Shown: in pieces, positions 1-15,117 of the stretch | Layout of the letters: each line of letters begins with the position of its first letter | Position numbering within the stretch: the first letter of the stretch is position 1 | Sequence record: PZ513997.1 | DNA length: 40,530 nucleotides | Direction: 5' to 3' (one strand) | Source: a phage | Position numbers and translations under genes: made by a program | The notes under the pieces: generated by a model | Databases searched by the model: none | The model's input: only the letters and a program-made list of their open reading frames with translations | What the model was told of the DNA's origin: nothing

Positions 1-1443
1 ATGTCACTTGTAAGTCTAGTACGCGACACTACTCAAGATATCAAGCACAAGGCAGATATTCTTCTTGATTATCTGGACCGCCAGGAGCAAGGCTTAGGTC
101 AGGTTCAGGAGTTTGTAGAATCCTCCACTATTCTGAATATCCCTTCTTTGCGTAGCTTACTACCTTCCTCCGAGGGTCAGGTGGTGCAAGTACTAAGTAG
201 TTACAGCACCGCCGCTACACAACTCCATTTAGGTGGTGGGCAGTTCCAAGCTGTTAATAACCTGCAAGCAGAGCCAGACGATGGCGGTATTGTAGTGCAC
301 AGTACGCATCCTACGCTGGTATGGAAACGCATTAACTTCACTGCTTATGATATGCAGTTCTGGGGTGTAGTAGCTGATGCAAGTACTGATAACGCAGCAG
401 CCATTACCCGCGCTACTCAGTACGCCCGGCGTAACCGAATTGTACTGGAAGCCCCCGCAGGCAGTATTCATACCAGTGAAATGGTCCCCCTGTACGATAA
501 CATGGGTATACGTGGGCATGGTCGCGCCGAGAATACAGTATTCTACAAGACCACTAACAACGGGTTCAACTACACCAAGAACGGGGTAACTGTCCTTACT
601 GTAGATGCGTTGGCTGGGTTTGTGCCTAAAGAGTGGGACCTCGCTGATTACGAGATAAAGAGTTTCTGTGTGCATGCACAGCTTATTGGCTGTATGTTCC
701 GCAGACTTGGCCTCAGTGCTGAGAACGTAGCCACAACTCGCCCACAGTACGGCCTGCATATCGGCAAGGCAGCTACAGCGGTCGTGCGTCAGTGTACATT
801 CGAAGGTGGTTACATTGGCATTAAGGGCTATAACGTATTCAGTAGCGTCTTCGAGAGTGTAGCAGCGGTGCAGTTCAATGGCTATGGCTATGCTGGTGTA
901 AGTATCAGCGACTACCGTAACAGCACTTTATACAACTCAGGTACATCACTGGACATGCGTATCGTGCAGGTACGTGGATACCAGTTCGGCTTTGAACTGG
1001 ACCGCCTGCAGTACAGTACCCTTATCGATTGTACAGCAGAAGAAATCGTCCCTATGGCTGGGGAAACCACAAGCTACGCCTTCAGTATGTACGACCCGTT
1101 CTGTATCACAATGCTGAACTGTGCTACCGAGTTCGTTAAGGGTGGACAGATTCGTGTACTAGGTTTCGCTAACCCTAGCTTCCGACCGCAGCTTAAAGTT
1201 ACCGGATTCATTGCTATAGACCAGCAGAACCCGGCTGCGCTTACTCCCATCTACCTTGTCGACAACGGGGGTACTACAGGTATGAACGTTGTTATAGAGG
1301 CATCTGAACTATCCAGAAACACTGCTCTGAGCAATAACGGGCAGCCGAGTGTACAAGGTGCAGGAGCTAAGGTAATCCTGATTGGATGCTCTGGAGAGGA
1401 CTGGGTAGCTTCTGGTAGTGGGGTATTCACTAGACTCGCTTAA
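1..1443 (+). CDS. tail spike-like receptor-binding protein, possible beta-helix polysaccharide depolymerase
   Basis: 480 aa ORF. C-terminal two thirds are rich in short G/N/V/I/S/T beta-strand-like segments (e.g. 'GYIGIKGYNVFSSVFESVAAVQFNGYGYAGVSISDY'), typical of parallel beta-helix tail spikes. Sits beside lysis and fibre genes. No T7 gp17-type N-terminal anchor domain. Assignment is by composition and context only. Confidence 0.4.
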   Translation: MSLVSLVRDTTQDIKHKADILLDYLDRQEQGLGQVQEFVESSTILNIPSLRSLLPSSEGQVVQVLSSYSTAATQLHLGGGQFQAVNNLQAEPDDGGIVVHSTHPTLVWKRINFTAYDMQFWGVVADASTDNAAAITRATQYARRNRIVLEAPAGSIHTSEMVPLYDNMGIRGHGRAENTVFYKTTNNGFNYTKNGVTVLTVDALAGFVPKEWDLADYEIKSFCVHAQLIGCMFRRLGLSAENVATTRPQYGLHIGKAATAVVRQCTFEGGYIGIKGYNVFSSVFESVAAVQFNGYGYAGVSISDYRNSTLYNSGTSLDMRIVQVRGYQFGFELDRLQYSTLIDCTAEEIVPMAGETTSYAFSMYDPFCITMLNCATEFVKGGQIRVLGFANPSFRPQLKVTGFIAIDQQNPAALTPIYLVDNGGTTGMNVVIEASELSRNTALSNNGQPSVQGAGAKVILIGCSGEDWVASGSGVFTRLA

Positions 1444-1983
1444 ATGCTATCGAATAAAATCAAGGCAGCGCTGGCAGGGTCTTCCCTGCTGGGCGCGAGC
1501 CTATTCGCAGTAATTGAAAGCAACGAAGGCTTATCCCTCACTGCTTACAAAGATTCCGCAGGCGTACCTACCATCTGCTATGGCGAGACTAAAGGCGTTA
1601 AAATGGGCCAAAAGGCTACGCTGTCGCAGTGTCAGGCCATGCTGATACAGTCAGCAGGGGAACACGCTAAGGCTCTTGACGGGCTTCCTATGCATCTTAC
1701 GGACGTACAGCTTCTGGGAGCCATAGACCTAACCTATAACATTGGGGTATCAGGTTTCAAGAACAGCACCGTGAAGCGCAAGCTAATGCAAGGGGATAAT
1801 AAAGGTGCTGCTCAGGCCGTACTAGCGTGGCGCTACATCACTGTTAAGGGTAAGAAGTACGATTGCTCAGTTAAGGCCAACAAGGTCTGCTACGGCCTCT
1901 GGAAGCGCCGTGTTTGGGAATCCCAAGCTATTGGCAATGAATTTAAATCAATGCAGGCAGCAGTAGCTGCTATGCCTAAATAA
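1444..1983 (+). CDS. SAR endolysin, T4-lysozyme-like muramidase (GH24)
   Basis: 179 aa. 'ESNEGLSLTAYKDSAGVPTICYGET' matches the T4 lysozyme catalytic region '[21 protein letters not shown]' with the same Glu-Asp-Thr spacing. The N-terminal Gly/Ala-rich weakly hydrophobic segment 'KIKAALAGSSLLGASLFAVI' directly precedes the catalytic Glu, as in signal-arrest-release endolysins (P1 Lyz, phiKMV gp45). Confidence 0.8.
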   Translation: MLSNKIKAALAGSSLLGASLFAVIESNEGLSLTAYKDSAGVPTICYGETKGVKMGQKATLSQCQAMLIQSAGEHAKALDGLPMHLTDVQLLGAIDLTYNIGVSGFKNSTVKRKLMQGDNKGAAQAVLAWRYITVKGKKYDCSVKANKVCYGLWKRRVWESQAIGNEFKSMQAAVAAMPK

Positions 1984-3084
1984 ATGAGTCTAATTAATCA
2001 GCGCCGTCGTATCTCTAAGGGTGGCAATACCGGCGGTGGTGGCGGTACTGGGCCACAAGGACCTGTAGGGGAGCAAGGCCCTGTAGGGCCTATGGGTCCG
2101 GCAGGTGCAGATGGCCCAGTAGGTCCAGTAGGTCCAGTCGGTCCACAAGGTCCTCAAGGCCCAGCTGGGCCTCAGGGTCCGCAAGGTCTGCAAGGTCCTG
2201 AAGGTGTTCAAGGAGCTAAGGGAGATAAGGGCGATACTGGTCCAGCGGGGCCAGCGGGTCTCAACTTCCGTGCTGCTTGGGTTCCGGGCTTGACCTATGC
2301 TTTACAGGATTCAGTAGCCTACAATGGTAGTACTTGGTTTGCTAATTCGGCTATTGAGGCAGACGTAACGCCCGGTACTGATCCTCGTTGGGTGCTGCTT
2401 GCTATGCAGGGTACTAAGGGGGATACCGGACCTACAGGTCCACAGGGGCCTCGCGGAGTGCAAGGCGTGCCCGGAGACGTAGGCCCTCAGGGTCCGCAGG
2501 GTATAGCAGGCCCGCAGGGTATTCGCGGTCCTCAAGGTGATACCGGCGAGCAAGGTCCCGCAGGGCCACAGGGCGCTAGAGGTATACAGGGAGTTAAAGG
2601 CGATAAAGGCGACAAGGGTGATAAAGGGGATACAGGCGCTACTGGACCCCAAGGACCCGCAGGTCAAAATAATACCAATAATCCAGTATATACTACACAA
2701 CTTGCAGTATCTACTAGCTATTCGGCAATAGCTATTCCTAATAACCCCGGAGTATCCTTAACGGTTAGACGTGTCAGCAATAATATTGAGTATTCATTTA
2801 CTGGTAACTCCATTGCGGGTAGGTACTTCGACGTAGAATTAGTTAACTTCCCCTCAGCGGACGTAGTCAAAAGGTATCAATCTAACCATACAATAGCAGG
2901 TACTAGCCGCTATGTAGTAGGCGACCCCGCAGGCTACACTGGTACAGGATACAAGAAGATTCAAATTACTGCAAGGGATTGGGGAGATAAGAATATTATT
3001 ATCATAGACCTGTTCCACCTACAACGAGCTGGGGATGCTAACTTCAACATCGCCATTAGGATTGAGACCTTTAAACTTCCTTAA
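1984..3084 (+). CDS. collagen-like (Gly-X-Y) repeat protein, probable tail fibre or fibre-associated protein
   Basis: 366 aa. Two long uninterrupted G-X-Y tracts ('[46 protein letters not shown]...' and '[52 protein letters not shown]...') followed by a non-repetitive C-terminal domain. Confidence 0.65.
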
Positions 3085-3684
3085 ATGGCGGTAGTAAGAA
3101 AGCAGCGTAGAGTTGACGGTAAGAAGCAGAACTACTATTGGGATACTGAATTATGTATTGAGGTAGCAGCTCCTGTAAGGAAAAAGCACTATAGCATAGC
3201 TAATCCTATGCAAGGCTTGATAGGTTACGCTGTGATGCACGATAGCGAGCTTAAACAAGGTATAACAGACGCGTTTGCTAACTTTAACGGTAGTCAGATG
3301 CGTAACGGTTTAACTGGTATCAGTATACCTAAGTTGATTGAGTTAGCAGATACACAACCAGAGCTATATAGTACTGAGCATCCAGAGAGTACTAACCATG
3401 CTGCGTATGATGCAGCGCTTACTATGCTTCTAGTATTAGTGCGTGAACGTATCCCTGAATGGGAAGAGGCGTACAGATATGATATGCATAATAGTGGGTT
3501 AAATATCGTTGATTTAATGTGTGAACAAGGCTATGACACTGATAACTATACCGGTGCTATAGCTAATAGTCTTAATCAGGTTTGGAGTGAAGGTAAGCTC
3601 TTAGTAGGCACTGAGGCTAACAAGCATTGGCTTAAATCTCAGGGATTTTCTAAACTGCGTTCCCAGCGTAATAGATACATTTGA
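3085..3684 (+). CDS. hypothetical protein (weak resemblance to DnaQ-like 3'-5' exonuclease motifs)
   Basis: 199 aa ORF. 'YYWDTEL' resembles an Exo I D-x-E motif and 'NHAAYDAALTML' resembles an H-x-A-x-x-D motif, but spacing is atypical. Weak. Confidence 0.3.
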   Translation: MAVVRKQRRVDGKKQNYYWDTELCIEVAAPVRKKHYSIANPMQGLIGYAVMHDSELKQGITDAFANFNGSQMRNGLTGISIPKLIELADTQPELYSTEHPESTNHAAYDAALTMLLVLVRERIPEWEEAYRYDMHNSGLNIVDLMCEQGYDTDNYTGAIANSLNQVWSEGKLLVGTEANKHWLKSQGFSKLRSQRNRYI

Positions 3685-3861
3685 ATGGATAAAGCTAATT
3701 GGCAAGGTTATAAAACTCATGCAGATATGTTTGAGTTTCACAATAGAATTAACAACTACGCTTATCAGAGACTTAAAGCAGAGCAGGAGCTAGCAGAGCT
3801 TAGGCTACTAGCTTATAAGGAAGGGAAGGTATTCAACAATGAAGATTGGAAGAGATTTTAA
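3685..3861 (+). CDS. hypothetical small protein (58 aa)
   Basis: ATG-initiated ORF in the tiled frame, immediately after the preceding stop. No recognisable motif. Confidence 0.25.
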   Translation: MDKANWQGYKTHADMFEFHNRINNYAYQRLKAEQELAELRLLAYKEGKVFNNEDWKRF

Positions 3862-3864
3862 TTG

Positions 3865-3893
3865 TTGACTTACCTGTTTTGTAGAGGTATAGT
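3865..3893 (+). promoter_or_regulatory. sigma70-type host promoter candidate (early promoter)
   Basis: TTGACT (3865-3870), 17-nt spacer, TATAGT (3888-3893): a near-consensus -35/-10 pair with optimal spacing. Lies at the head of a non-coding-looking island, upstream of the small early ORFs. Confidence 0.45.
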
Positions 3894-4032
3894 TACATCA
3901 CACCACAACGAGGTAGGAAATAAAGAAGATGAACATTCAGAGCATGAACTTCCCGGTAATTATTAATTGTCTCTTAGCTTCTCATGTAATTCCCTCTGTA
4001 TAACCCGAGGACGCTACGTTACGCTCAGAACC

Positions 4033-4140
4033 TATTTATCTACCCCGATTCTTCAGGAGGGCAGCGGCTTATCGTTCCCGCTAACTTGCTGGCTAGTGCT
4101 CTGCTCCGTGCCTGCGCTTACCGTTACTCGGTTACTATTG
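4033..4140 (+). repeat. copy A of a roughly 100-bp repeated non-coding element (paired with 12950-13050)
   Basis: Roughly 75-80% identity to 12950-13050 by eye, including the shared 11-mer 'tttatctaccc' and core 'cttcagRagggcaRcSgcttatcgt'. Contains a 5-bp stem (agcgg/ccgct, 4063-4082) that is replaced by aaccg/cggtt in copy B, i.e. compensatory changes. Confidence 0.45.
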
Positions 4141-4332
4141 AAGCCTTACCAACCTGTACACGCACAATCATATCTTCTAGGCTGGACATGCAAGCTGTAC
4201 CGCTTTCGTAAGTACCTTCTTCCTTGCTAGATGGGACGTATATTTGGCACTACCTTTCTAATCGCCGCTACTATCTTTAACATTACACTGCCGTTTCTTG
4301 CTATCTATGGCTTAATCATGCTGTTCGCTTAA

Positions 4333-4572
4333 ATGACTAACTTCAAAACTATGATTGCTGGTATCTTGGCAGCTGCTGCTGTTACCTTCTCTATTAAGGA
4401 TGCTCAGGCTGTTCCTAACAGCATTGAACTCTGCAACTGGGGCAAATGGGCGTACGCTCAGAACATCACGCTACAGCAGCTAGTAGACACGTTAAACAGC
4501 GTTGAAGCTATGCCGATTGATGATAGAATGCAGGTAGTAGAGTGCTTTGTAGAGGAGATGTCTAAATCATGA
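4333..4572 (+). CDS. small secreted or periplasmic early protein
   Basis: 79 aa. N-terminus 'MTNFKTMIAGILAAAAVTFSIKDAQA' has the n/h/c architecture of a Sec signal peptide with an AxA-like cleavage site. First substantial ORF after the promoter island. Confidence 0.45.
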   Translation: MTNFKTMIAGILAAAAVTFSIKDAQAVPNSIELCNWGKWAYAQNITLQQLVDTLNSVEAMPIDDRMQVVECFVEEMSKS

Positions 4573-4701
4573 ATGAACGAATGGTATGAAGAGGCAATGC
4601 CGTGGCTTATCTGGGCCTTAGGCTTCCTGATTGTATATATGATTGCTAGTTACGCTGACGACGCTAAGATTGATTCTAAAGAGGAAGATAAAGATGCTTG
4701 A
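4573..4701 (+). CDS. small membrane protein (42 aa)
   Basis: Single hydrophobic helix 'PWLIWALGFLIVYMIASYA' followed by an acidic/lysine-rich tail. Junction shows 'atgaatga', consistent with an ATGA start/stop overlap that was duplicated. Confidence 0.3.
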   Translation: MNEWYEEAMPWLIWALGFLIVYMIASYADDAKIDSKEEDKDA

Positions 4702-4959
4702 ATGCTTGATATTATTCCCAACAACAAAGCTGCTAATGACGATAGATTCCAAGAATGTGATTTCGAGGAGTATCGTCAGTACGAGGCATTGAGTGTAACG
4801 AAGGGAATGGCTAAGCGCGTATGGTTACATAGATATTATGTAGGTAAGTTCGCACGTGAGGAGCACGTGCGAGTTTACAATACGCAAGAGGCTGCTAAGG
4901 CTCAGCAAGCGGTGCTAGGCGGTACTGTTACTGCCCTGCTTGAAACTGGCTTAATCTAA
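4702..4959 (+). CDS. hypothetical early protein
   Basis: 85 aa ORF in the early cluster. No motif recognised. Confidence 0.35.
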   Translation: MLDIIPNNKAANDDRFQECDFEEYRQYEALSVTKGMAKRVWLHRYYVGKFAREEHVRVYNTQEAAKAQQAVLGGTVTALLETGLI

Positions 4960-5715
4960 ATGTTTGATTTAACTACTACGAACACAGAACAGACCATGTC
5001 TAGTCTGGACTTCTTGAATAACATTATTAATCCGGCGCGTGTAGCAGCAGGGGAGAGGGAGGTTAGAAATAGGGATTTTATCAAACGCGTAGAAGACGAG
5101 TTGGACGATTTAACGGCGGGCGAAACTTTCGTTCGCTTCGGTAATACAGTAACTTATTACAATCTAACCTTAGAGCAGATGACTCTAATAGGTATGCGTG
5201 AATCTAAAGCTGTGCGTCGCTCAGTGTTAGAAACTCTGAAGAAGCTGCAACGTAAGGAGACTGACGAAGAGATTATGATGCGCGGATATATGCTGACTGT
5301 TAAGAAGTACGAGCAGTTGCAGCAAACGCTTATCATGAAGGACGCGGTCATTGAAGTACAAGAAGAGCAAATTCATAATCTACAGAACCTGTTTAATGAA
5401 GGTATGACTCCTTCGGCATTCGTTAAGCAACTGAATGGCTGTAATGCTAATGCTGTGTCGTCCTATCTAGAGCAGCTAGGTTGGATTTATTCTCGTGAAC
5501 GTAAAGGAGGTAAGGATTGGTTTGCTTATGCAAGCTCACGTGATAAATATCTGCGTCAATCAAGTTACTGCCCTAACCCTGCTTATCCTAACGTGCGTAT
5601 TCATACGGTACAGTTAACTAAGCAAGGCGCTGTTAAGCTCTATGAGATGTACTTAGACAGTAAACTTCCTATGCGTAAAGTATGGGATGGTAAATTCACC
5701 CACGACGTACTGTAA
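4960..5715 (+). CDS. putative antirepressor-like / DNA-binding early protein (KilA-C-like C-terminus)
   Basis: 251 aa. C-terminal segment 'FVKQLNGCNANAVSSYLEQLGWIYSRERKGGKDWFAYASSRDKYL' resembles KilA-C/antirepressor C-terminal domains. Weak, by eye. Confidence 0.3.
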   Translation: MFDLTTTNTEQTMSSLDFLNNIINPARVAAGEREVRNRDFIKRVEDELDDLTAGETFVRFGNTVTYYNLTLEQMTLIGMRESKAVRRSVLETLKKLQRKETDEEIMMRGYMLTVKKYEQLQQTLIMKDAVIEVQEEQIHNLQNLFNEGMTPSAFVKQLNGCNANAVSSYLEQLGWIYSRERKGGKDWFAYASSRDKYLRQSSYCPNPAYPNVRIHTVQLTKQGAVKLYEMYLDSKLPMRKVWDGKFTHDVL

Positions 5716-5883
5716 ATGCACAATATTTCTAACCCTGAAGAAATGAAGGATCTGGCACGTCACCTTCTCGAAGCGCTGGATTATAGTACGGCTACTTCTG
5801 ATGATGGTATGGTATGGTTAGAGAACTTTGAAGTAGGTATCTTGAGGGACTACATTGAGTATTTAGAAAATAAATTAAAATAA

Positions 5884-6210
5884 ATGAACGCTAAGGCTCA
5901 AGCACGTCGTTTCGGTATTTCTGTAGAAGCAGCTAAAGAGATGGAACGTAACCGTACTGAACTGGTGCAGCTTGCTCAGAAGCCGGAAGGTACTGAAGCA
6001 CGTAAGGCGCTTAAGAAGTTAATGACTCATACTTACAAAGCACAGTCCATTCCCAGCAATGACTTCTCTGATAAAGTATCTCAGCGCGGCAGTAAAGTAG
6101 CGGAGTATAAAGAACGCGGCGAACGCACTTGCCGTCCTAGCAGTAAGACGGATATTAAAGTTAATAGTTACTTTGCATCTAAATCACGTACTCCTAAGGG
6201 GATTAAATAA
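5884..6210 (+). CDS. hypothetical basic early protein
   Basis: 108 aa, Lys/Arg-rich. No motif recognised. Confidence 0.35.
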   Translation: MNAKAQARRFGISVEAAKEMERNRTELVQLAQKPEGTEARKALKKLMTHTYKAQSIPSNDFSDKVSQRGSKVAEYKERGERTCRPSSKTDIKVNSYFASKSRTPKGIK

Positions 6211-6314
6211 ATGGACCTTAATACGGCTTGGCAGATGGTAATGTGGCCTGTATGCGTCGTAATAGCAATCATCCTGATAATCGCGACTGAAGTAGAGAAG
6301 AGGAACAAGAAATG

Positions 6315-6487
6315 AATGATTCAAGAGGATGATTTTGATACTTGGTATAACATTCACGTAAGGCACCGTGCTCGTGAGGAAGCTACTAGGAGGAAACTAG
6401 CAGCGCTTAATCGCGGGCACTCTGAGAAGTATGCTAAGAAGTTAGCTTCTGAAACTTACAACGAATACCTGACGAGGAACTTAAAAT
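6315..6487 (+). CDS. small early protein, paralogue 1
   Basis: 57 aa. C-terminal 'HSEKYAKKLASETYNEYLTRN' is clearly paralogous to 'HSEAHAKKLAQGIYSEYLKRY' in the adjacent ORF 6488-6649. Confidence 0.35.
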
Positions 6488-6649
6488 GAATGACTGAACG
6501 TGAGATGTGGTATGAAGAATATGTTAAAAAACTTGCCGCCCAAGCTGCCACTGCTGCTTATCTGGTAGAACTTAAGAAACACTCTGAAGCTCACGCTAAG
6601 AAATTAGCGCAGGGTATTTACAGCGAATACTTGAAGAGGTATACAGAAT
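6488..6649 (+). CDS. small early protein, paralogue 2
   Basis: 53 aa. Tandem paralogue of 6315-6487 (see that entry). Confidence 0.35.
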
Positions 6650-6957
6650 GAATGACACAGCACCAGAAAGCACAGCAACTAGCTAAGAACTACTACACCT
6701 TCCTGATTAACAATGAATGTAACACCTGTTTCGCTTGGAATGCAGCTATGGCCCTTTTCAAACTGGAGATGCAGAAATGAATGACTGACCTTAACCCTGA
6801 ACTGATTGTAATGCGTAATGATGAAGTAACTGTACAGAACCTAGCTCGCGAGTACGATGCGCGGACTGAGCTGCATGAATACTACAAAGCTAAGGCTGAC
6901 CGTGTAGGTCTAACATTAGAAGCTTATTGCAAACGCTTTGGCGTTAAACTTCACTAA

Positions 6958-7287
6958 ATGTTGCCAGTAAACGAAGTAGTCGGGCAGTACTGGCGTATGC
7001 TTGAGACTCAAAGCAGCTTAGGCCGTAAGACATTGCAAGATATACCGATAGAGCTGCGCAGGCTCTGCCCTTTGAAATGGTGTACTGATTGGCAGTATCG
7101 TGAAGGTATGCGCCTGCTGGTAGGTTATTACAGCTATGATAACGAGAGAGCTTCAGAAGTCCTTCAGCGCATAGATTTTAATGTAATAAGGGAGTTGCAG
7201 GAGAAAGGGTATGAAGGTGCTAAGCAAGCGTTTAAGGATGCTTGCTTAGACTATTATGAATGGCAAGTATCGTACAGAGGTATCTAA
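6958..7287 (+). CDS. hypothetical protein
   Basis: 109 aa ORF directly upstream of primase. No motif recognised. Confidence 0.4.
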   Translation: MLPVNEVVGQYWRMLETQSSLGRKTLQDIPIELRRLCPLKWCTDWQYREGMRLLVGYYSYDNERASEVLQRIDFNVIRELQEKGYEGAKQAFKDACLDYYEWQVSYRGI

Positions 7288-8061
7288 ATGGCTGATGAAC
7301 TCTGGCTCAGGACGGCAAAGCGCTTGGCTGTTGGACAAACTGAACGCTTTAGGTGCTGCGGAAGAACAGCAGCAGCCGTAATAAGAAACGAGACTGATAA
7401 ATGGTCCTGCTCCTGCTATCGTTGCAAGAGCTATCACGTAGAACGTAAGCAGTATGCGCAATTAGCAGCACCTGAAGTACTGGGGCGCGAGTTACCCGCC
7501 CCTCAGGACCTGAAGCGCCTGCCTGAACTGGATGCAGGGCTTCAGCAGTTCCTTTACGGATTCTTAATATCAAAAGGTATCTGGCCTGACATGGCTGGAG
7601 ATGTTTATTACTCAGAACAATACAAGAGGTTAGTATGGAAATTATCAACGGTCAGTTACATAGCGCGAGCATTGCACGAGTATCAGCAACCGAAATGGGT
7701 CGTAATGGGGAAGCCGATGCAGTATGCAGCCGCGACGAATACGACGGGTTCATTGATAGTATTGACGGAGGATTACCTTTCGGCTTTCAAAGTTCAGCAA
7801 GTCACGGAGAGGTATTCATCTCTACAAGTTACGGCGGTAGCGTTGCTTGGGACAAGATTACCGCTGACTCTGAAGGCTGGGCTTATTAAGTTAGGTAAGC
7901 CTGTAGTGTGTATGCTTGACGATGATAAAGCTGGCTGGGATGGTACAGTCAGTGTAATAAAACAGCTTAAACCTTTCCTGCCAGTCTATGATAGGCATTT
8001 AGATGTAGACCCTAAAGCCGCTCATTGCGGTAAGATACTTGGAGCATTTGATGGACTTTAA
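7288..8061 (+). CDS. DNA primase (zinc-binding domain plus TOPRIM)
   Basis: 257 aa. Cys cluster 'CCGRTAAAVIRNETDKWSCSCYRC' (zinc ribbon). TOPRIM-like 'LTEDYLSAF' (conserved Glu) and 'CMLDDDKAGWDG' (DxD). Directly upstream of the helicase, as in phiKMV-like phages. Confidence 0.7.
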   Translation: MADELWLRTAKRLAVGQTERFRCCGRTAAAVIRNETDKWSCSCYRCKSYHVERKQYAQLAAPEVLGRELPAPQDLKRLPELDAGLQQFLYGFLISKGIWPDMAGDVYYSEQYKRLVWKLSTVSYIARALHEYQQPKWVVMGKPMQYAAATNTTGSLIVLTEDYLSAFKVQQVTERYSSLQVTAVALLGTRLPLTLKAGLIKLGKPVVCMLDDDKAGWDGTVSVIKQLKPFLPVYDRHLDVDPKAAHCGKILGAFDGL

Positions 8062-9336
8062 ATGGACTTTAATTTACTACGCGCTTTCTGTGAACGTAAG
8101 GTAATGGATAGGTTGTACGAACAGACGCCTAAGTCCTTGCTAGCACCTGATACGGTAGCGATGATTGGTTGGCTGCAACTGTACTTCGCAACTTATCCTG
8201 ACTCTAACGAAGTTAACTTTGAGATGATGAATACGCTCTTGGATATGCGAGGGACACATCTTCAGAAAGAGCAGCTGGATATTATGAAGCATATGCTTAA
8301 GACTATTCAGAACGTCCCTACTGAGCTTGTAGCAGGTACAGTTAAGACACTGAATGAGCTAGCTTACTCTGGCGAGATGGCTGCACTAGTGAGCAAGTAT
8401 CAGGCAGGTGATGAAATAGATTTCGTACAGGAAGCTAAAGCACTTGAGCGTAAGTACTCTGGTGTAGTAGCTGCTAATGATTCATTACTTAAATGGGAAG
8501 ATGGAGGTGTAGATGATATTCTCGCGGCTACTGATGAGTCTGGTGGTCTTAAGCTTACTGTGTTCAGTGAGTTGGCTAGAAACATTCGCGGCTTGCGGGG
8601 TGGTGATTGTGTCGCTGTGGCTGCTCCTGTTGACGCTGGTAAAACTTCTCTCCTTGCTGCTGCAGTAGTTAGCTTAGCTGAGCAGATGCATGAGCAGAAG
8701 GAGATTTACGCGGAGCGTCCTATACTGTGGCTGGTAAATGAATCATTAGCCAAGCGCACTGTTCCTCGTATCTATCAGGCAGCTACTGGGCTGACTCTTC
8801 AGCAGATTGTAGAGCAGCATAAAGAAGGTAAGTTCGCTGATAAGTATCTGAAGAAGGTTGGGACGTGGGATAAGATTCGCGTTAAGGATGCGCACAGTAT
8901 GAATCTGGGGCAGATTTCAACCTTACTGGAGGAAATGAAACCTGCTGTTCTAGTAGTAGATATGGTGAGTGGTATCAAGGGCGCGAATGCTGACTCAGAA
9001 CATCAGGCACTGGAGCGTACTTGGCAGGAACTGCGCATCTTAGGCTGTGAGCATGACTGTATTATCATTGGTAGTATGCAGCTATCGGCAGAAGGTTACG
9101 ATATGCTCTATCCCCCACTGACTGCTATGAAGCAATCACGCATCGGAGTACAGGGTGCATTAGACCTTTGTATTATGATGGGAAGATTGAATGTGAATGA
9201 TAAGCCGGACATGGCTAACATTCGCGGAATCTCTACCCCAAAATCAAAATTAACTAAGTCCGGCTGTCAGAGCTATGTTCAATTTCAGGTTGAATTTGAC
9301 GGAGGACGTTGTCAGTTTAAGGAGGGTACATTATGA
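8062..9336 (+). CDS. replicative DNA helicase (DnaB / T7 gp4 helicase-domain-like)
   Basis: 424 aa. Walker A 'APVDAGKTSLL'; Walker B-like 'VLVVDMVSG'. Confidence 0.8.
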   Translation: MDFNLLRAFCERKVMDRLYEQTPKSLLAPDTVAMIGWLQLYFATYPDSNEVNFEMMNTLLDMRGTHLQKEQLDIMKHMLKTIQNVPTELVAGTVKTLNELAYSGEMAALVSKYQAGDEIDFVQEAKALERKYSGVVAANDSLLKWEDGGVDDILAATDESGGLKLTVFSELARNIRGLRGGDCVAVAAPVDAGKTSLLAAAVVSLAEQMHEQKEIYAERPILWLVNESLAKRTVPRIYQAATGLTLQQIVEQHKEGKFADKYLKKVGTWDKIRVKDAHSMNLGQISTLLEEMKPAVLVVDMVSGIKGANADSEHQALERTWQELRILGCEHDCIIIGSMQLSAEGYDMLYPPLTAMKQSRIGVQGALDLCIMMGRLNVNDKPDMANIRGISTPKSKLTKSGCQSYVQFQVEFDGGRCQFKEGTL

Positions 9337-9762
9337 ATGAGCGAATGTATAGAACATAACCAGAAGGGCAACAAAGCTGGTTACGGCAATGGTTACTGGA
9401 ACGGTGAACAGGTTATGCTTCACCGCTTAGCCTATTGCTTTAACAAGCAAATACCTGTAAGTGAAATTAAAGGTAGTGTAGTGATGCACACCTGTGATAA
9501 CCCTCGCTGCATTAACCCAACGCACTTACGCTTGGGTACTCAGGATGAAAACATGAAAGATATGCAAGGCAAGGGAAGGATGAGCCAGGGCAGTAAGCAT
9601 TACATATCTAAACTTACTGAGGAGGATGTTAAGTACATACGTGAGAATTATATACCACGGCATCCAAAGTTTGGAGGTAAGGCGCTTGCTGCTAAGTTTG
9701 GTATAAATCCGGCATCCCTGTGTCAAATACGAAAAGGCCTACGCTGGAAATCCGTAAGCTAA
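9337..9762 (+). CDS. HNH homing endonuclease
   Basis: 141 aa. 'HRLAYCF...VMHTCDNPRCINPTHLRLGTQDENMKD' is an HNH_3-type motif (His, Asn, His with Cys zinc ligands). Free-standing between helicase and polymerase. Junction shows duplicated 'atgaatga'. Confidence 0.8.
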   Translation: MSECIEHNQKGNKAGYGNGYWNGEQVMLHRLAYCFNKQIPVSEIKGSVVMHTCDNPRCINPTHLRLGTQDENMKDMQGKGRMSQGSKHYISKLTEEDVKYIRENYIPRHPKFGGKALAAKFGINPASLCQIRKGLRWKSVS

Positions 9763-9915
9763 ATGTTAAAGTCAGAAGACATTACAGAGCAGGACTACGA
9801 GGTTATCCGTGCGATAGCTAATAACCGTAAGCAGGTTAAACGCTACACGCTGGATAGCAGTGAGATGATTGTACGAGCAGCACTTAACAGAGCACGGCGC
9901 GAGGGGTGGAAATGA

Positions 9916-11130
9916 ATGAGCAGCATACTGATTTGGGATATTGAAACGCAGAACGTACCTTACTATGGCGGGGTTGCTACACCTTACTGCCCAGATAACT
10001 ACATTGTGGAATCAGGCTTCAGGATTGATAGAACTAATCCAGATGGTACGGTGACGTGCAGTGATGTAGGTAGCGTGCGTTACGAGTCGCGGGAGGAGTT
10101 CATCTCAGCACCTAGTAGTCAGTGGTTGCCTATTCAGGACGATACTTGGTTAATGGTAATGCATAACGCCGCATATGAGATTAGCTGGGCGTTGACGTTT
10201 GCTAGGGAAGAGTTTGAAGCATTCCTGAAACGGGGAGGGCGCGTATTCGATACAATGCAAGGCGAGTACATTGCCTCAGACTTCCAAAACCTTTACCCAT
10301 CATTAGATGAGACGGCTCCTAAGTACGGCGGCAGCCACAAGGTTGACGGCGTTAAACTGCTATGGCAGCAGGGCGTGTTAACAGCAGATATTGACCCTGT
10401 ACTGCTGCATGAGTATCTAACAGGGCCAGAAGGTGATATCGTAAACACAGCGTTATGCTTCTACGGGCAGTGTGCAGTGTTCGCTGAGCGTGGGCAGATG
10501 CCTATGGTCTGGGAAAGGATGGATAGTGTACTGGCCTTAGCCTACTGCGAGTTCAACGGTGTGTACGTAGACATGCCTACAGCCAGAGCTAACCAGAAGG
10601 AGCAGGAGGACGCTATAGCAGAGCTGAAGCAGACGCTGCAAGGCTTCTTACCTGAACTGCCTGAGGGATTTGAGTTCAACTGGAACAGCGGTTATCATAT
10701 GAGTGCGTTGGTGTACGGCGGTACGGTTAAGTACAAGTGCAAGGTCCCGTATGACCCGCCAAAGTTTGTAAAGTTCGATGCCTACCTGGCCGATGTTAAG
10801 GGTACTCAGCAATACATAGATGTTAATGATTGGCAAGATAGCTGGACGTACAGCCGTGAAGTGTTTAAGTCTGGACGTAATAAAGGTCTGCCCAAAGTTT
10901 ACAAGGTGGAAAGTTCAGAGCAGTCTATGAAGTGGGGTGAGCGCCTGTATAAGTTCGAAGGGCTTGTGCACATCCAAGACCTACCAGCAGTATTGCAAGA
11001 GAAGTACGCAGAGCGCGGAGAGTTCCGAGGTGCTCAGACATTGGCAGATGGTACACCTGTGTTCAGTACAGGGACTGATGCTATGAAAGAACTGGCTAAC
11101 TATTTTATTGGGATGGAAGAGAATGAGTAA
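9916..11130 (+). CDS. DNA polymerase, N-terminal part (3'-5' exonuclease domain)
   Basis: 404 aa. Exo I motif 'ILIWDIETQN'. Followed in frame by the polymerase-domain ORF. Confidence 0.8.
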   Translation: MSSILIWDIETQNVPYYGGVATPYCPDNYIVESGFRIDRTNPDGTVTCSDVGSVRYESREEFISAPSSQWLPIQDDTWLMVMHNAAYEISWALTFAREEFEAFLKRGGRVFDTMQGEYIASDFQNLYPSLDETAPKYGGSHKVDGVKLLWQQGVLTADIDPVLLHEYLTGPEGDIVNTALCFYGQCAVFAERGQMPMVWERMDSVLALAYCEFNGVYVDMPTARANQKEQEDAIAELKQTLQGFLPELPEGFEFNWNSGYHMSALVYGGTVKYKCKVPYDPPKFVKFDAYLADVKGTQQYIDVNDWQDSWTYSREVFKSGRNKGLPKVYKVESSEQSMKWGERLYKFEGLVHIQDLPAVLQEKYAERGEFRGAQTLADGTPVFSTGTDAMKELANYFIGMEENE

Positions 11131-12285
11131 ATGAGTAACAAGGCTTCGGAGTTCTTCAAGGCATACAGTGAGATGACCTTGCGTGAGAAAGATTTAGGCT
11201 TCTATGAGAAGAAGGAATTTAACAAGGACGGTAGCCTGCGTAAGACTACAGGTATGCTTCCGTATGTAATCCCTCAGAAGGAAGACGGCAGCGGCATCAT
11301 TCATCACAGATTGAATCACTGCTCAACCACGACCGGACGACTATCAGCATCTAACCCGAATATGCAGCAGTTGCCGCGTGAATCTAAGGTTAAGCAGATT
11401 CTGCGTAGTCGTTACGGTGAGCAAGGTATGATTGCTCAGTGTGACTACTCAGCTATGGAAGTTGTAATGGGCTGTGTAATAACAGGTGATAAGAAACTAC
11501 TATCCTTGCTTGAAGCTGGTACAGATATGCACTGCTATCGTTTAGCATTCCAAGAGGGTATGCCTTATGAAGAAGTCTACGAGCTTTGCCATAACCCGGA
11601 TGCACCTAACCATAAGGAATGGAAGAAGAAACGAACAGCAATCAAAACCTTCAGCTTCGCAGCGCAGTATGGAGCTTCCGCTAAAGGACTGGCGTTCGCC
11701 TCTGGTGCCAGCCTGAAGGACGCTGAGAAGTTCTTAGCTAACGAAGAAGCCCTGTTCCCTGAATCTATTAAGTACCGTGATGTAATTGCAGCAGAGGTAA
11801 ATCGTACAGCACTGTTAGAGCCTATGCGCCGCGAGCAATCAGATGATGGTAGCTGGCGTATCTATCGGGAAGGCTATTTTACTGCTCCTTGTGGTACTCG
11901 TTACCGCTTCCGTCAGAAACCTGTATGGCGTGAAGGTAAGCAGGTCATGGACTTTAAACCTACAGAGATGGCTAACTATCCATTTCAAGGTTCAGGTTCT
12001 CTGCTTATGCTTATTGCGATGGGTATGATTCTGCGCGCAGGATTAGCTACGGATTGGGGTAACGGTAGTTGGTGCTTGTTAGCAACTGTACATGACTCCG
12101 TATATTGTGACTGTAAAGATGAGTCAACGGCGAGGGAAGTAGGTCAATTAATTAAGAAATGTATGGAAGGTGCAAGAGATAGAATGCTGCAACTTTGGCC
12201 TAACTTCGGAATACTACAGGACGTTAAATTCCCTGCCGAGTGTGGTATTGGTAAATCATTTAAAGAGGAGCAGGTACTTGGCTAA
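11131..12285 (+). CDS. DNA polymerase, C-terminal part (family A polymerase domain)
   Basis: 384 aa. Motif A 'CDYSAMEVV', motif B 'RTAIKTFSFAAQYGAS', motif C 'VHDSVYCDC'. Confidence 0.85.
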   Translation: MSNKASEFFKAYSEMTLREKDLGFYEKKEFNKDGSLRKTTGMLPYVIPQKEDGSGIIHHRLNHCSTTTGRLSASNPNMQQLPRESKVKQILRSRYGEQGMIAQCDYSAMEVVMGCVITGDKKLLSLLEAGTDMHCYRLAFQEGMPYEEVYELCHNPDAPNHKEWKKKRTAIKTFSFAAQYGASAKGLAFASGASLKDAEKFLANEEALFPESIKYRDVIAAEVNRTALLEPMRREQSDDGSWRIYREGYFTAPCGTRYRFRQKPVWREGKQVMDFKPTEMANYPFQGSGSLLMLIAMGMILRAGLATDWGNGSWCLLATVHDSVYCDCKDESTAREVGQLIKKCMEGARDRMLQLWPNFGILQDVKFPAECGIGKSFKEEQVLG

Positions 12286-12329
12286 GTGGTATTGGTAAAT
12301 CATTTAAAGAGGAGCAGGTACTTGGCTAA
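12242..12329 (+). repeat. exact 44-bp tandem duplication at a CDS junction
   Basis: 'gtggtattggtaaatcatttaaagaggagcaggtacttggctaa' occurs at 12242-12285 (polymerase 3' end) and again at 12286-12329 (start of the HNH ORF, GTG start, read in a different codon phase). This is the pattern expected when two CDSs that overlap by 44 bp are concatenated. Confidence 0.7.
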
Positions 12330-12825
12330 AGTTACTAAACCTATACCGGAAGGCATACGGGAATTTTGGAGATATGATTCTGAGAGTGGGAAATTAATAT
12401 GCATACAAAACATAAAGCGCACTAAGTACAGTGAAGGCATAGTTGCAGCTAGTCTTACAACTACAGGTAATTATCTAAAGCTGAATTTTAATAAGGTAAG
12501 CTACCTTCAGCATCGGGTAGCATGGTTCCTTTACTATAATGAACAACCTCCTGAAGTTATAGACCACAAGGACGGTAACGGCCTTAACAACGCTATAAAC
12601 AACCTGCGTGCTGCAGATGATGGTTGTAACATGATGGACATTACTGTAACTGCTAAATCCACTACAGGTATTAAAGGTGTCATGCCTGTACGGGGAGGTA
12701 AGCTGTTCCGTGCCGAAGTATGTGTAGATGGTAAGCGCTACCAGAAGCACAGCAAGGACGTAGCTTTCTTAGAGCAGTGGGTACAGGCTAAGCGTAAAGA
12801 ATTACACGGAGAGTTTTATAAATAG
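12286..12825 (+). CDS. HNH homing endonuclease with AP2-like DNA-binding domain
   Basis: 179 aa. HNH motif 'VIDHKDGNGLNNAINNLRAA' and AP2-like 'GIKGVMPVRGGKLFRAEVCVDGKRYQKHSKDVAFLEQWVQAKRKELHG'. Its 5' end is the second copy of the 44-bp duplicate. Confidence 0.75.
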   Translation: MVLVNHLKRSRYLAKVTKPIPEGIREFWRYDSESGKLICIQNIKRTKYSEGIVAASLTTTGNYLKLNFNKVSYLQHRVAWFLYYNEQPPEVIDHKDGNGLNNAINNLRAADDGCNMMDITVTAKSTTGIKGVMPVRGGKLFRAEVCVDGKRYQKHSKDVAFLEQWVQAKRKELHGEFYK

Positions 12826-12949
12826 ATGCTTGCTGACGCTACTGACCGTTTCCGGTTGGCTCCCTGCCTCGTCGATGTGTGTACTATACGGAAAGCATCC
12901 CTGCTTGTCAACAGCTATTTATAAGTGTACGGGAGGAACCGTTCAGTCT

Positions 12950-13050
12950 CGTTTTATCTACCCAGAGACTTCAGAAGGGCAACCGCTTATCGTCCTCGGT
13001 TAACGTCTTGCTATGTGGCACATCTTACTTACTTCGTTACTGCTTGTCAA
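12950..13050 (+). repeat. copy B of the roughly 100-bp repeated non-coding element (paired with 4033-4140)
   Basis: See copy A. Lies in the 366-bp non-coding-looking island 12826-13191 downstream of the HNH gene. Stem aaccg/cggtt at 12981-13001. Confidence 0.45.
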
Positions 13051-13191
13051 TCTCTTTCTTAAATGATTCTTACTTTCATCTACTACCTCCTATTAATAAA
13101 GTTAAGGCTGCAATCTCTGAAGACTGCATCACTAACCCTACTTAAGTTAGCGAGTCTTATTTCTCCTAGACTCTCATCTGCATCACACTGA

Positions 13192-13380
13192 ATGAAAGTA
13201 AGAATCATCAATCACGATGCTTATGGTCCTTTCTTAACTGATACATGTAAGGAACTGTACGCAGTAGGTACAGTGCATGAAGTACAAGATTTCTTCCCTG
13301 ACACGGGGGAGGTTATCTTAGGGTATGAAGATGAAGGATTTACCTTTGATCCATCAGAGTATGAAGTTGTGGAGGAGTAG
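13192..13380 (+). CDS. small acidic hypothetical protein
   Basis: 62 aa, strongly acidic ('...FDPSEYEVVEE'). Immediately upstream of the pentapeptide-repeat gene. Confidence 0.35.
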   Translation: MKVRIINHDAYGPFLTDTCKELYAVGTVHEVQDFFPDTGEVILGYEDEGFTFDPSEYEVVEE

Positions 13381-13902
13381 ATGAACTATTTAGATATCTG
13401 CGAGAAGTACAATGTAGGAAGCCTGCGCGACGCTAACCTGCGCGACGCTGACCTGTACGGCGCTAACCTGTACGGCGCTGACCTGCGCGACGCTAACCTG
13501 TACGGCGCTAACCTGTGCGGCGCTGACCTGCGCGACGCTAACCTGTACGGCGCTAACCTGTGCGGCGCTGACCTGCGCGGCGCTAACCTGCGCGGCGCTA
13601 ACCTGCGCGGCGCTAACCTGTACGGCGCTAACCTGCGCGGCGCTAACCTGCGCCTAACCTGCGCGGCGCTAACCTGTACGGCGCTAACCTGCGCGGCGCT
13701 AACCTGCGCGGCGCTAACCTGTGCGGCGCTAACCTGTGCGGCGCTAACCTGCGCGGCGCTAACCTGCGCGGCGCTAACCTGTACGGCGCTAACCTGCGCG
13801 ACGCTAACCTGCGCGACGCTGACCTGTGCGGCGCTGACCTGCGCGACGCTGACCTGTGCGGCGCTAACCTGCGCGGCGCTGACCTGCATGGGACTGACTT
13901 GA
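13381..13902 (+). CDS. pentapeptide-repeat protein (Qnr/MfpA-type fold), reading frame disrupted
   Basis: First 90 codons encode perfect A(N/D)LxG pentapeptides ('[30 protein letters not shown]...'). At 13651-13661 one 15-nt unit is 11 nt, shifting the called frame into 'LTCAALTC...'. The pentapeptide frame continues to a TAG at 13935-13937 ('...[19 protein letters not shown]'). Confidence 0.6.
13426..13886 (+). repeat. 15-bp tandem repeat array (about 31 units, one truncated to 11 bp)
   Basis: Units of form 'cgcgRcgctRacctg', head to tail with no spacers. This is the coding repeat of the pentapeptide-repeat gene. Truncated unit at 13651-13661. Confidence 0.85.
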
Positions 13903-14130
13903 TTGATTGTAATTTATGGGGAACAGTACTTTATTAGCCTATACAAGGGAACAGTACGCGCAGGTTGTCAGTCGCATACGATAGCGGAGTGGCGAAGTTT
14001 TAGTAAGGAAGAAGTAATTGCTATGGACGGGCGTAATTCTCTTAAATACTACCCACGTCTTTTAGACATCATTGATTTTTACTGTGGTAAGGGCGAGCGT
14101 CCTGATTGGGTAATGAAAATAAACAAGTAA
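13903..14130 (+). CDS. hypothetical protein (called with TTG start; true start probably the internal ATG)
   Basis: 75 aa as called. The first roughly 11 codons overlap the true C-terminus of the pentapeptide-repeat frame, so the start is probably downstream. Confidence 0.3.
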
Positions 14131-15117
14131 ATGCCGCGCATCAATGCCATTAAACTCTTCACTAAAGAACAGCACCAAGAAATTCTGAGCAAGTATAAAT
14201 CAAACGCTGAGGCAGCAGCAGCATACAACGCAGCATCTGGTTTAGATGAACCTGTGGCTTATCGTCAGCTTGTTAAGTACTGGCGCAGAATCTACGAAGC
14301 AGCTAATGGCAGTAAAGCGAAAGCTAATAAAGGGCTGGTTGAAGCGCGTAAGCTAATACAACCTTCCCCTACAGATGATATCGGTAATACTGATGTTCCT
14401 GACATGTGTCGCCGTATTCTTGTCATTGGTGACCTGCACGCTCCTTACACCCACCCTGATGCCCTCGATTTCCTTCGTTCTGTCCGAGACAGTTACGGTC
14501 CTGACATGGTTGTTCAGGTAGGTGACGAGACTGACGGGCACGCTATTAGCTTCCATGACTCTGACCCGGACTTGGATAGCGCAGGTGTTGAACTTGAGAA
14601 AGCTAAGCAGTATCTAGCTAAGGTGCATGACCTGTTCCCTAACCTGCTGGTGTGCGACTCGAACCACGGTAGCTTGGTGTACCGCCGCGCTAAAGCGCAT
14701 GGCCTGCCAGTACAGTTCATTAAAAAGTACCGCGATATCCTGTTCCCAGAACACGGTGCTAAGAAGTGGAGCTGGTCAGACGCTTGGGTATTGAATACTC
14801 CGACCGGACCAGTACGCTTCCAACATCAAGTATCTGGTGACCTTATGCTGAACGCTTCGCATGAACGCACCAGCATGGTAATCGGTCACCACCATGCGTT
14901 ATACGATATTAAGTATGCAGCAAGCAGCACGGCATTGTACTTCGGTGCGCATGCAGGTTGCTTGATTGACCACAAAGCTATGGCCTTTGCTTACGGTAAG
15001 CTGACTCGTAATAAGCCTATCCTCGGTGTAATGACTATTACCGAAGGATGTCCTAGTCTGATTCCTATGCTACTGGATGCGGAAGGACGTTGGGTTAATC
15101 GTAAGAAGAAACGCTAA
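14131..15117 (+). CDS. calcineurin-like metallophosphoesterase (phosphatase or nuclease)
   Basis: 328 aa. Five-motif MPP signature in order: 'VIGDLHAPY' (GDxH), 'VGDETDGH' (GDxxD), 'CDSNHGS' (GNH-like), 'VIGHHHA' (GHxH). Preceded by about 90 residues without a recognised motif. Confidence 0.7.
   Translation: MPRINAIKLFTKEQHQEILSKYKSNAEAAAAYNAASGLDEPVAYRQLVKYWRRIYEAANGSKAKANKGLVEARKLIQPSPTDDIGNTDVPDMCRRILVIGDLHAPYTHPDALDFLRSVRDSYGPDMVVQVGDETDGHAISFHDSDPDLDSAGVELEKAKQYLAKVHDLFPNLLVCDSNHGSLVYRRAKAHGLPVQFIKKYRDILFPEHGAKKWSWSDAWVLNTPTGPVRFQHQVSGDLMLNASHERTSMVIGHHHALYDIKYAASSTALYFGAHAGCLIDHKAMAFAYGKLTRNKPILGVMTITEGCPSLIPMLLDAEGRWVNRKKKR

Follow-up and report, generated by a model that had tools for sequence, protein, structure and literature searches.

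The repeated element at positions 4033-4140 of sequence record PZ513997.1, a 40,530-nucleotide (nt) stretch of phage DNA that was analyzed as a whole and is referred to here as the window, is well supported as a structured sense-strand RNA, namely the first half of a leader that is folded and non-coding and lies behind each of 3 strong host-type promoters. Each of the 64 segments of the window is an exact substring of the genome of Escherichia phage vB_EcoP_PAS7 (PAS7; OQ921331.1), in which all 3 copies of the element, A (1066-1197), C (2981-3110), and B (10375-10505), are on the + strand. As to what the leader does, we tentatively favor a cis-regulatory role, with the 5' leader acting as an expression gate on operons transcribed by the host polymerase, a reading in which our confidence is limited.

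A repeated element with a conserved fold

A preliminary description, made from the window alone, had noticed 2 copies of the element in non-coding-looking islands, and the repeat is genuine: window positions 4035-4098 and 12953-13017 are 79% identical, with a local alignment score of 56 compared to 19.8 ± 2.4 (maximum 29) in 300 shuffles, and the 11-mer TTTATCTACCC is present at 4035 and 12953 and at no other site of the window on either strand. The hairpin with paired substitutions described there is equally real, with the stem AGCGG/CCGCT (4063-4082) in one copy and AACCG/CGGTT (12981-13001) in the other enclosing the loop cttatcgt. By contrast, the limits proposed for the 2 copies (4033-4140 and 12950-13050) have to be redrawn, because the homology extends approximately 60 nt further to the left, to approximately 3972 and 12925, and on the right does not reach 4140 or 13050, with positions 13022-13050 corresponding to a promoter on the opposite strand. 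Thus, the idea of a conserved, covarying, non-coding functional element stands, whereas the strand on which it was read does not, the functional strand being the reverse complement. The comparison with homologs that had been suggested as a check bears out the pairing, with compensatory changes among 9 copies from 4 genomes or contigs: besides those of PAS7, the relative P64441 carries 3 copies and 2 IMG/VR contigs from a single sample contribute 3 more. These 9 copies make up the alignment of the 5' domain.

Three hairpins (P1, P3, and P4) and an H-type pseudoknot, the third loop of which is A-rich, make up the 5' domain. RNAalifold applied to the 9 copies independently found 4 hairpins, P1 to P4, with compensatory changes in 13 of 19 pairs. 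When the copies were aligned with a covariance model, 98.8-99.1% of the cells were paired, as opposed to 29-45% in slid controls, and both sides had changed in 14 of the 24 pairs. All 6 pairs of P2, which is the stem S2 of the pseudoknot, covary and none is broken. The other pseudoknot stem, S1, formed between GCCC upstream of P2 and GGGU in the P2 loop, is 100% paired, and its flanking U-A pair is replaced by C-G in 2 C-type copies, where the corresponding part of the 11-mer reads GGGUG. The 11-mer itself (4035-4045 in copy A) comprises the 3' strand of S1 and the A-rich loop L3. Overall, the stems vary by compensatory change and the loops and junctions are conserved, and such a combination of short helices and conserved loops fits an RNA in which the loops would serve as recognition or tertiary-contact surfaces.

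An unbiased pseudoknot search recovered this topology, at an unchanged position, in 14 leaders whose stem sequences are unrelated, including those of phiKDA1 (stems GGUCC/GGACC and GGGUAU/AUACCC) and L162 (GGCGU/GCGCC and GAGACU/AGUCUC) as well as Entb_48, KKP 3828, and L095, which belong to Koutsourovirus and its relatives; in 12 of the 14 leaders, the 3' strand of S2 abuts GA(A/G)CG. Owing to G.U pairs, pairing is more complete on the sense strand than on the antisense strand, both in the 5' module (98.8% versus 90.6%) and in the module that follows it (96.9% versus 81.5%). An additional helix closing the domain, between its 5' end and GAGAUGA, was considered and discarded, because it can form in only some of the copies.

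A 3' domain with mutually exclusive hairpins

Conservation across the family is widest 3' of the element first described, in a part that consists of GAUGAGA, the hairpin P5, CGCUAAG...CUUAGUUAAGC, the GC-rich hairpin P7, GCAGAAUUAAGAGGAUU, and AUG. Among the 13 A- and B-type leaders, P5 and P7 strongly covary. In the same leaders, a CUUAG strand can pair either with an upstream CUAAG (helix P6, 98.7% paired) or with a downstream UUAAG(AG) that overlaps the Shine-Dalgarno (SD) sequence (helix P8, 96.7%), the 2 pairings being mutually exclusive. The column shared by P6 and P8 has undergone a C-to-G change accompanied by G-to-C changes on both sides, and a C-to-U change that leaves a G.U pair on one side and a U-A pair on the other; these changes remain compatible with either partner. 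P8 lengthens P7 into an irregular helix of 15-20 base pairs (bp), and in all 13 leaders the combination P8+P7 is predicted to be more stable than P6+P7, by 1.1-10.6 kcal/mol. In the 12 leaders folded at full length, the probability of the SD being unpaired is 0.09-0.47, with values of at most 0.24 in 8 of them. The resulting irregular hairpin of approximately 20 bp, which is of the size cleaved by RNase III, is positioned approximately 100 nt 3' of the hairpin that was noted originally and outside the element as then delimited.

In many leaders, GAUGAGA also opens a very short open reading frame (ORF), AUG AGA GUC UAA or AUG AGA AGC UAA (for example, PAS7 10491-10503), with the 3' strand of P4, which contains GAGG or GGAG, located 6-7 nt upstream. 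A conserved mini-ORF was nevertheless rejected, since P644_B and L162 lack the AUG and the length of the ORF varies.

The window is a concatenation of ORF calls

PAS7 belongs to the subfamily Slopekvirinae of the Autographiviridae and to the proposed genus Cepavirus (PMC11522302). Its genome differs from the window in ways that bear directly on the element. The window is a head-to-tail join of 64 frame-1 ORF calls, with no spacers in between and a total length that is a multiple of 3, so that each ORF begins directly after the preceding stop codon and lacks a ribosome-binding spacer; overlapping starts and stops (e.g., ATGA) are doubled and intergenic spacers are deleted. Four segments (3967-4230, 12826-12924, 12925-13062, and 13063-13191) are the reverse complement of the PAS7 + strand. 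Both islands are spurious small ORF calls in the PAS7 intergenic regions 792-1384 and 10226-10589 and resemble what a permissive gene caller would produce. A segment junction interrupts copy B, with PAS7 10471-10477 missing and the 3' end of the copy moved to 13164-13191, and for leader A the window lacks PAS7 1203-1272, which contains the 3' strand of P5, the P6/P8 switch, P7, and the SD. The joining of ORF calls thus explains why the element was read on the wrong strand and with the wrong promoter spacing, and why copy B is interrupted. More generally, because the window consists of concatenated ORF calls, the strand, spacing, and copy number of "intergenic" features in it are unreliable.

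Altogether, approximately 2 kb of PAS7 non-coding DNA, in 18 gaps of at least 20 nt, is absent from the window. The first 3 genes (window 1-3084), encoding the tailspike, endolysin, and tail fiber, correspond to PAS7 40579-42021, 40030-40569, and 38918-40018, respectively; they share the strand of the remainder, but their order is reversed relative to PAS7, whereas the segments of 3085-40530 keep the genome order, which again points to a window assembled from a list of ORF calls.

A copy behind every strong host-type promoter

The cassettes are located in the early/middle region of PAS7 (approximately 811-1275, 2952-3160, and 10229-10592), and the 4 best + strand matches to a sigma70-type promoter in PAS7 1-20000 (at 811, 2952, 10229, and 10345) are precisely the cassette promoters. 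Copy C lies in a 210-bp intergenic region (PAS7 2949-3158) that was omitted from the window and has its own promoter, TTGACG-17-TATAGT. In 8 of the 9 copies, CAAGACG, the first conserved motif of the leader, starts 9-11 nt past the -10 hexamer, the exception being copy A of PAS7. The association with a sigma70-type promoter is thereby borne out and "leader," one of the terms offered in the preliminary description, is the right word, although the distance of 130 nt between promoter and copy A reported there results artificially from the inversion of a segment in the window: the distance in PAS7 from the -10 hexamer to the start of copy A is approximately 227 nt. No terminator was found between the element and the next gene at the PAS7 copies, which indicates that the element is a 5' leader rather than a free-standing gene.

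In P64441 and L006, a promoter of the PA type adjoins copy A directly. PAS7 carries in this place, between PA and copy A, an insertion of approximately 230 bp (808-1045; window 3862-3966 and 4137-4228) with an annotated ORF of 56 amino acids (aa) at 875-1045, and part of the insertion resembles sequences of the unrelated E. coli phages SM_W22, BMA1, and Oekolampad. Its absence from P64441 and L006 suggests that insertions can occur at the junction between promoter and leader.

Distribution of the leader

In scans of phage, viral, and metagenome sequences, the 5' domain of the PAS7 type was confined to PAS7, P64441, where the 3 copies occupy syntenic places, and a single metagenome sample. The viral scans with a strict pattern returned 2 contigs of that sample only, and a protein-anchored scan returned the same contig. 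A looser pattern produced at least 120 loci, mostly random, from which filtering with nhmmer yielded L062 and L095; in a metagenome scan with the core pattern, all 32 loci were chance matches as judged by their covariance-model scores. Phages of the ECO104 4-5-2 type and L062 from IMG/VR carry 3 copies of a shorter variant that lacks P1 and has a mini P2, and phages of Koutsourovirus and their relatives carry 1 copy, located behind the same double promoter. Shigella phage Buco has neither an intragenomic repeat nor a match to the leader profile.

Searches for known counterparts were negative. The whole PAS7 genome gave no match in Rfam 15 at gathering thresholds, nor did the leaders at E ≤ 10 over 7.3 kb. 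Comparison of the intergenic regions and leaders with 50,697 phage records, using blastn in a distant mode, yielded no T7-group phage and no lambdoid phage. Both halves of the leader lacked blastn matches in 5,426 complete E. coli genomes, and the leader is therefore not a copy of a host RNA. The only proteins that co-occur with the multi-copy leader are a secreted protein of 79 aa and a peptide of 42 aa, leaving no obvious RNA-binding partner encoded by the phage.

Features of the cassettes and neighboring genes

The features located in the window are listed below with their PAS7 equivalents. The genes downstream of the 3 copies are considered further on; in PAS7, the ATG of the ORF behind leader A has AAGAGGA 7 nt ahead of it.

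Features of leaders A and B and their surroundings in the window (PZ513997.1) and in PAS7; strands are those of the window.
Feature	Window	PAS7	Strand	Details
Promoter PA, TTGACT-17-TATAGT	3865-3893	811-839	+	10 of 12 consensus positions
Promoter PB1, TTGACA-17-TATAGT	12883-12911	10229-10257	-	11 of 12 consensus positions; best sigma70 match of PAS7 1-20000
Promoter PB2, TTGACA-17-TAAGAT	13022-13050	10345-10373	-	Directly upstream of copy B, within the copy B span first described
Copy A, 5' module (P1, pseudoknot, P3, P4)	3972-4103	1066-1197	-	Covariance-model match, 118.9 bits
Copy A, hairpin P1, AGCGG/CCGCU, loop GAACGAUAAG	4063-4082		-	4 of 4 modeled pairs change on both sides (9 copies)
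Copy A, H-type pseudoknot	4027-4063		-	S1, UGCCC 4059-4063 with GGGUA 4041-4045; S2/P2, AGAAUC with GGUUCU, 4027-4052
Copy A, hairpins P3 and P4	3993-4024		-	P3, 4011-4024; P4, 3993-4010; covariation/folding
Copy A, start of 3' module (AUGAGA and 5' part of P5)	3967-3986		-	Remainder not in window
Copy B, 5' module, first 96 nt	12925-13020	10375-10470	-	Covariance-model match, 148.7 bits on PAS7
Copy B, parts	12925-13001		-	P1, 12981-13001; S1, 12977-12981 with 12959-12963; P2, 12945-12970; P3, 12929-12942; 5' strand of P4, 12925-12928
Leader B, displaced rest	13077-13191		-	End of 5' module, 13164-13191 (PAS7 10478-10505)
Leader B, 3' module (P5, P6/P8, P7, SD)	13077-13178	10491-10592	-	
First ORF behind leader A	4231-4332		+	33-aa hydrophobic peptide MGRIFGTTFLIAATIFNITLPFLAIYGLIMLFA, unannotated in GenBank
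First gene behind leader B	13192-13380		+	62 aa, PHROG 6862, no known function

Several further elements adjoin the cassettes. The RNA between the tandem promoters PB1 and PB2 (ACAUCGACGAGGCAGGGAGCCAACCGGAAACGGUCAGUAGCG...; PAS7 10258-10344, L040 5520-5600, and L041 approximately 1915-1990) shows conservation extending from PAS7 as far as phiKDA1 and may fold into one more structured element. Past the first gene that follows leader B, PAS7, P64441, and ECO104 share a terminator-like hairpin, AGCCCUgcguaggAAGGGYU, followed by UUUAUUAUA (PAS7 10783-10810; L004 21072-21158, reverse complement; L040 approximately 6270-6300), in a spacer that is absent from the window. The motif (C/G)ACTATAAGATA is found in 2 other intergenic spacers outside the window (PAS7 11665-11675 and 19231-19241) and resembles the initiation region of T7-group promoters; it is a likelier candidate promoter of the phage RNA polymerase than the element.

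Elsewhere in the window, the DNA polymerase is split into 2 ORFs (9916-11130 and 11131-12285), which in PAS7 (7368-8582 and 8575-9729) overlap by 8 nt; P64441 shares the split, phiKDA1 has a single gene of 2.4 kb, and HNH endonuclease genes flank the locus. The segment 13381-13902 displays a strong 15-nt periodicity with 26 in-register repeats and encodes on the + strand a pentapeptide-repeat protein. The GenBank record of PAS7 places here a minus-strand "modular polyketide synthase," which looks like a misannotation.

Function of the leader and alternative explanations

In the cis-regulatory mechanism that we tentatively favor, the host sigma70 RNA polymerase would transcribe a leader of approximately 200 nt from each of the 3 cassettes, with the element first noted forming its 5' domain, and the leader would act on its own transcript. 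During transcription, the short P6 hairpin would form first and leave the ribosome-binding site open, after which the more stable P8+P7 hairpin would close it and might also become a substrate of RNase III. The conserved loops of the pseudoknot domain could make it a docking or sensor surface for a host component, be it RNA polymerase, a protein, or a small ligand, which would bias the choice between the 2 states. In a further reading, which appears to us distinctly unlikely, the pseudoknot domain would be a new factor-independent RNA binding to the host RNA polymerase that transcribes it. A function like that of the put RNAs of phage HK022 would then be performed by an unrelated structure, every transcription complex started at a host promoter of these T7-like phages would become resistant to pausing and termination, and the SD switch would couple this effect to translation of the first gene.

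Several observations weigh against a cis-regulatory gate or temper the structural evidence behind it. The sister clade of the ECO104 type keeps the promoters and the 3' domain but neither P1 nor the pseudoknot sequence. The switch is not uniform: in the B copies of PAS7 and L062, P8 is located upstream of the SD and does not include it, and the C-type copies have another pre-SD hairpin with no evident P6/P8 alternative. The genes downstream of the 3 copies are mutually unrelated, and PHROG searches assign them to function-less families only. Single-sequence folding energies are no better than those of shuffled sequences (z from -0.4 to +1.6) and carry no signal on either strand, so that the case for the structure is one of covariation alone, and since the family is small and the copies are related, the counts of compensatory changes overstate the number of independent events. 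Finally, we infer, in every case, the transcription starts, the RNA ends, and the processing.

The main rival to the cis-regulatory gate, although unlikely in our estimate, is that the 5' domain is a cis-acting RNA of the put or nut kind, which would render the host polymerase resistant to pausing and termination across the early/middle operons of 7-9 kb up to the gene for the phage RNA polymerase. A copy following every strong host-type promoter is what such a modifier calls for, as is the variable distance between promoter and element (approximately 10 nt in general and approximately 227 nt in copy A of PAS7), which recalls putL and putR, one of which lies just downstream of its promoter and the other approximately 270 nt downstream. 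The paralogous copies with conserved loops and variable stems, for which no phage protein partner is evident, point the same way, and the put RNA holds a minor-groove triplex, which can also arise in H-type pseudoknots whose loop 3 is A-rich. There would also be signals to overcome, namely the conserved hairpin AGCCCUgcguaggAAGGGYUUUUAUUAUA after the first gene past copy B in PAS7, P64441, and ECO104, and, ahead of the RNA polymerase gene, a GC-rich hairpin at PAS7 14049 that has a U-tract; the latter, however, is absent in P64441, and the ECO104 clade manages without a conserved 5' domain despite having the same promoters and the same terminator-like hairpin. Furthermore, the element has no detectable similarity to put, the blastn search of the phage database returned no lambdoid match, the architecture is different (4-5 helices in approximately 130 nt versus 2 long stem-loops in approximately 70 nt), and a polymerase modifier would not need the tight coupling to a ribosome-binding site. 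RNase III processing was suggested in the preliminary description for the hairpin within the element, but P1 has only 4-7 bp and no helix of the element exceeds 7 bp, far below the size of a substrate. Cleavage at the 3' hairpin of the leader is plausible on the predicted fold; that this would be the main role of the leader, freeing the 5' domain together with a 3' hairpin and creating a new 5' end at the ribosome-binding site, seems to us a long shot. Such a role accords with the hairpin of 15-20 bp, interrupted by small internal loops, that directly precedes or covers the SD in each of the 13 leaders of the A and B types, with the mismatched hairpin of approximately 17 bp that the C-type copies carry just before the SD, and with the location of copies B and C inside read-through polycistronic transcripts, as is the case for the R sites of T7. 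It leaves unexplained the conserved pseudoknot domain and the competing P6 helix, and the blastn search of the phage database found no T7-group phage and hence no detectable similarity to the T7 sites.

The remaining explanations have considerably lower probability. It is very unlikely that the 5' domain is released as a stable small RNA acting in trans, for instance as a decoy or sponge for a host factor or a defense system, with the 3 paralogs raising its dose. Copies behind 3 strong promoters, conserved and exposed loops, and a possible 3' processing hairpin would suit such an RNA, but no terminator separates the element from the next gene, the linkage to the SD switch argues for action in cis, and no stretch related or reverse-complementary to the core was found in PAS7 outside the copies or in complete E. 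coli genomes, in searches that are insensitive to short target sites. A role at the level of DNA, whereby the cassettes would be mobile promoter units for modular recombination in the mosaic early region, comparable to the promoter-early stem-loop cassettes of T4, or an origin or primosome signal and the RNA structure would be incidental, is improbable to a slightly greater degree. The cassettes do border highly mosaic gene sets among PAS7, P64441, and ECO104, the insertion of approximately 230 bp with a foreign ORF separates promoter A from copy A in PAS7, and the same double-promoter cassette is found at different genome positions in PAS7 and phiKDA1. Against this, compensatory changes maintain the pairing, including that of the pseudoknot, and the G.U pairs are strand-specific, indicating selection on an RNA fold rather than on duplex DNA, and any role in recombination could be a by-product. 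The element is also conserved, repeated, and intergenic in a phage of the Autographiviridae, which had raised the possibility of a promoter for the T7-like RNA polymerase of the phage itself. This is extremely unlikely: T7-like promoters have approximately 20-23 bp, whereas the element exceeds 100 nt and has covarying helices, is confined to the early/middle region, where it always lies downstream of sigma70-type promoters, and is absent from all intergenic spacers of the late region; moreover, a distinct motif similar to T7 promoters (CACTATAAGATA / GACTATAAGATA) is present at PAS7 11665 and 19231, the latter just after the RNA polymerase gene. We give practically no credence to the islands encoding small proteins. 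Copies A and B of PAS7 contain open frames of 32-87 codons, but stop codons interrupt all 6 frames in 5 of the 9 copies and no frame is open in all of them, the island ORFs match neither Pfam nor PHROG, and the stem substitutions are compensatory. Furthermore, one of the ORF calls contains a promoter and another, on the opposite strand, overlaps the stop codon of the preceding gene.

Comparison with known systems

Short motifs of several known signals were compared with the leaders by eye and set aside. The CUGANGA of a hammerhead core fits copy A only, and the spacing between GAUGAG and CGCUAA is wrong; approximately 6 of the 10 specified bases of the RfaH ops element match, with the critical T11 and G12 missing; GGA loops that could bind CsrA are not conserved among the copies; a sequence resembling the DnaA box TTATCCACC is present in C-type copies only; and the anti-SD CCUCC in the loop of P3 is absent from the A-type copies. 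A 1-mismatch match to the rrn boxA (GCTCTTTAATAA, preceded by GC), the only one in PAS7, is located outside the window at 42457-42468, in a non-coding stretch of 493 bp upstream of the first early gene.

The closest parallels among known systems are of 6 kinds. The putL and putR sites of HK022 are likewise paralogous structured RNAs, potentially triplex-forming, which are located at variable distances past early sigma70 promoters and require no dedicated phage protein. They differ in number (2 copies instead of 3), in their 2 long stem-loops, and in sequence, and the element, unlike put, is always tied to a ribosome-binding-site switch. The pL-nutL-N region of lambda has the same succession of an early host promoter, an RNA element with conserved loops, approximately 100 nt of structured spacer ending in a large hairpin at the SD, and the first gene. 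In lambda, nutL is located approximately 200 nt upstream of N, the RNA in between is highly structured, and RNase III modulates translation (PMC5725501). Unlike nut, the element is present in 3 copies per genome and the leaders contain no boxB-like hairpin that could be recognized by eye and no boxA-like sequence: boxA (GCUCUUUAACAA / CGCUCUUA) had no match with up to 3 mismatches in the 3 leaders, and genome-wide there were 45 matches versus 45.8 expected.

The mRNA of lambda cIII has alternative structures, and as is predicted for the leaders described here, 2 exclusive folds either free or block the ribosome-binding site of an early gene. The sequences are unrelated, however, and here the choice is between a short upstream hairpin and the extension of a GC-rich hairpin, with a large conserved domain upstream. 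The RNase III sites of T7 (R0.3, R0.5, R1, R1.1, and R1.3) are located inside read-through polycistronic transcripts and form hairpins of approximately 20 bp with internal loops. Like the element, they are repeated, mutually similar, and intergenic in transcripts made by the host RNA polymerase in a phage of the Autographiviridae, and the 3' hairpin of approximately 20 bp is comparable; by contrast, the hairpin noted originally is far too short, and the T7 sites have no pseudoknot domain. The leader pseudoknot of T4 gene 32 and those of the preQ1, SAM-II, and guanidine-III riboswitches are likewise of the H-type, have an A-rich loop, and lie in a 5' leader ahead of a ribosome-binding site that is regulated, but the pseudoknot of the element is located approximately 100 nt from the SD, which it neither contains nor abuts, and has no Rfam match. 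Promoter-early stem-loop (PeSL) cassettes of T4-type phages are also repeated units of an early promoter and a structure that border mosaic early genes; compared to these, the element is much longer and more complex, its fold is kept by covariation, and it occurs in 1-3 copies per genome.

Lambdoid phages are well known for structured cis-acting leaders on transcripts of the host polymerase (nut, put, and the leaders of N and cIII), and to our knowledge, RNase III sites aside, no such leader is on record for phages that encode a T7-like RNA polymerase of their own. The general kind, a structured phage 5' leader, is thus known, but the RNA family is undescribed; a pseudoknot domain, an SD switch, and the presence of a copy behind every strong host-type promoter are combined in it in an unusual way, in phages that have their own RNA polymerase. 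The topology of the pseudoknot, although not its sequence, is kept across genera, and the family would be a new entry for RNA family databases. It offers a testable candidate for how phages of the Slopekvirinae tune the host-polymerase phase of infection, and should the pseudoknot domain turn out to be an antiterminator that binds RNA polymerase, or a ligand sensor, its interest would be high.

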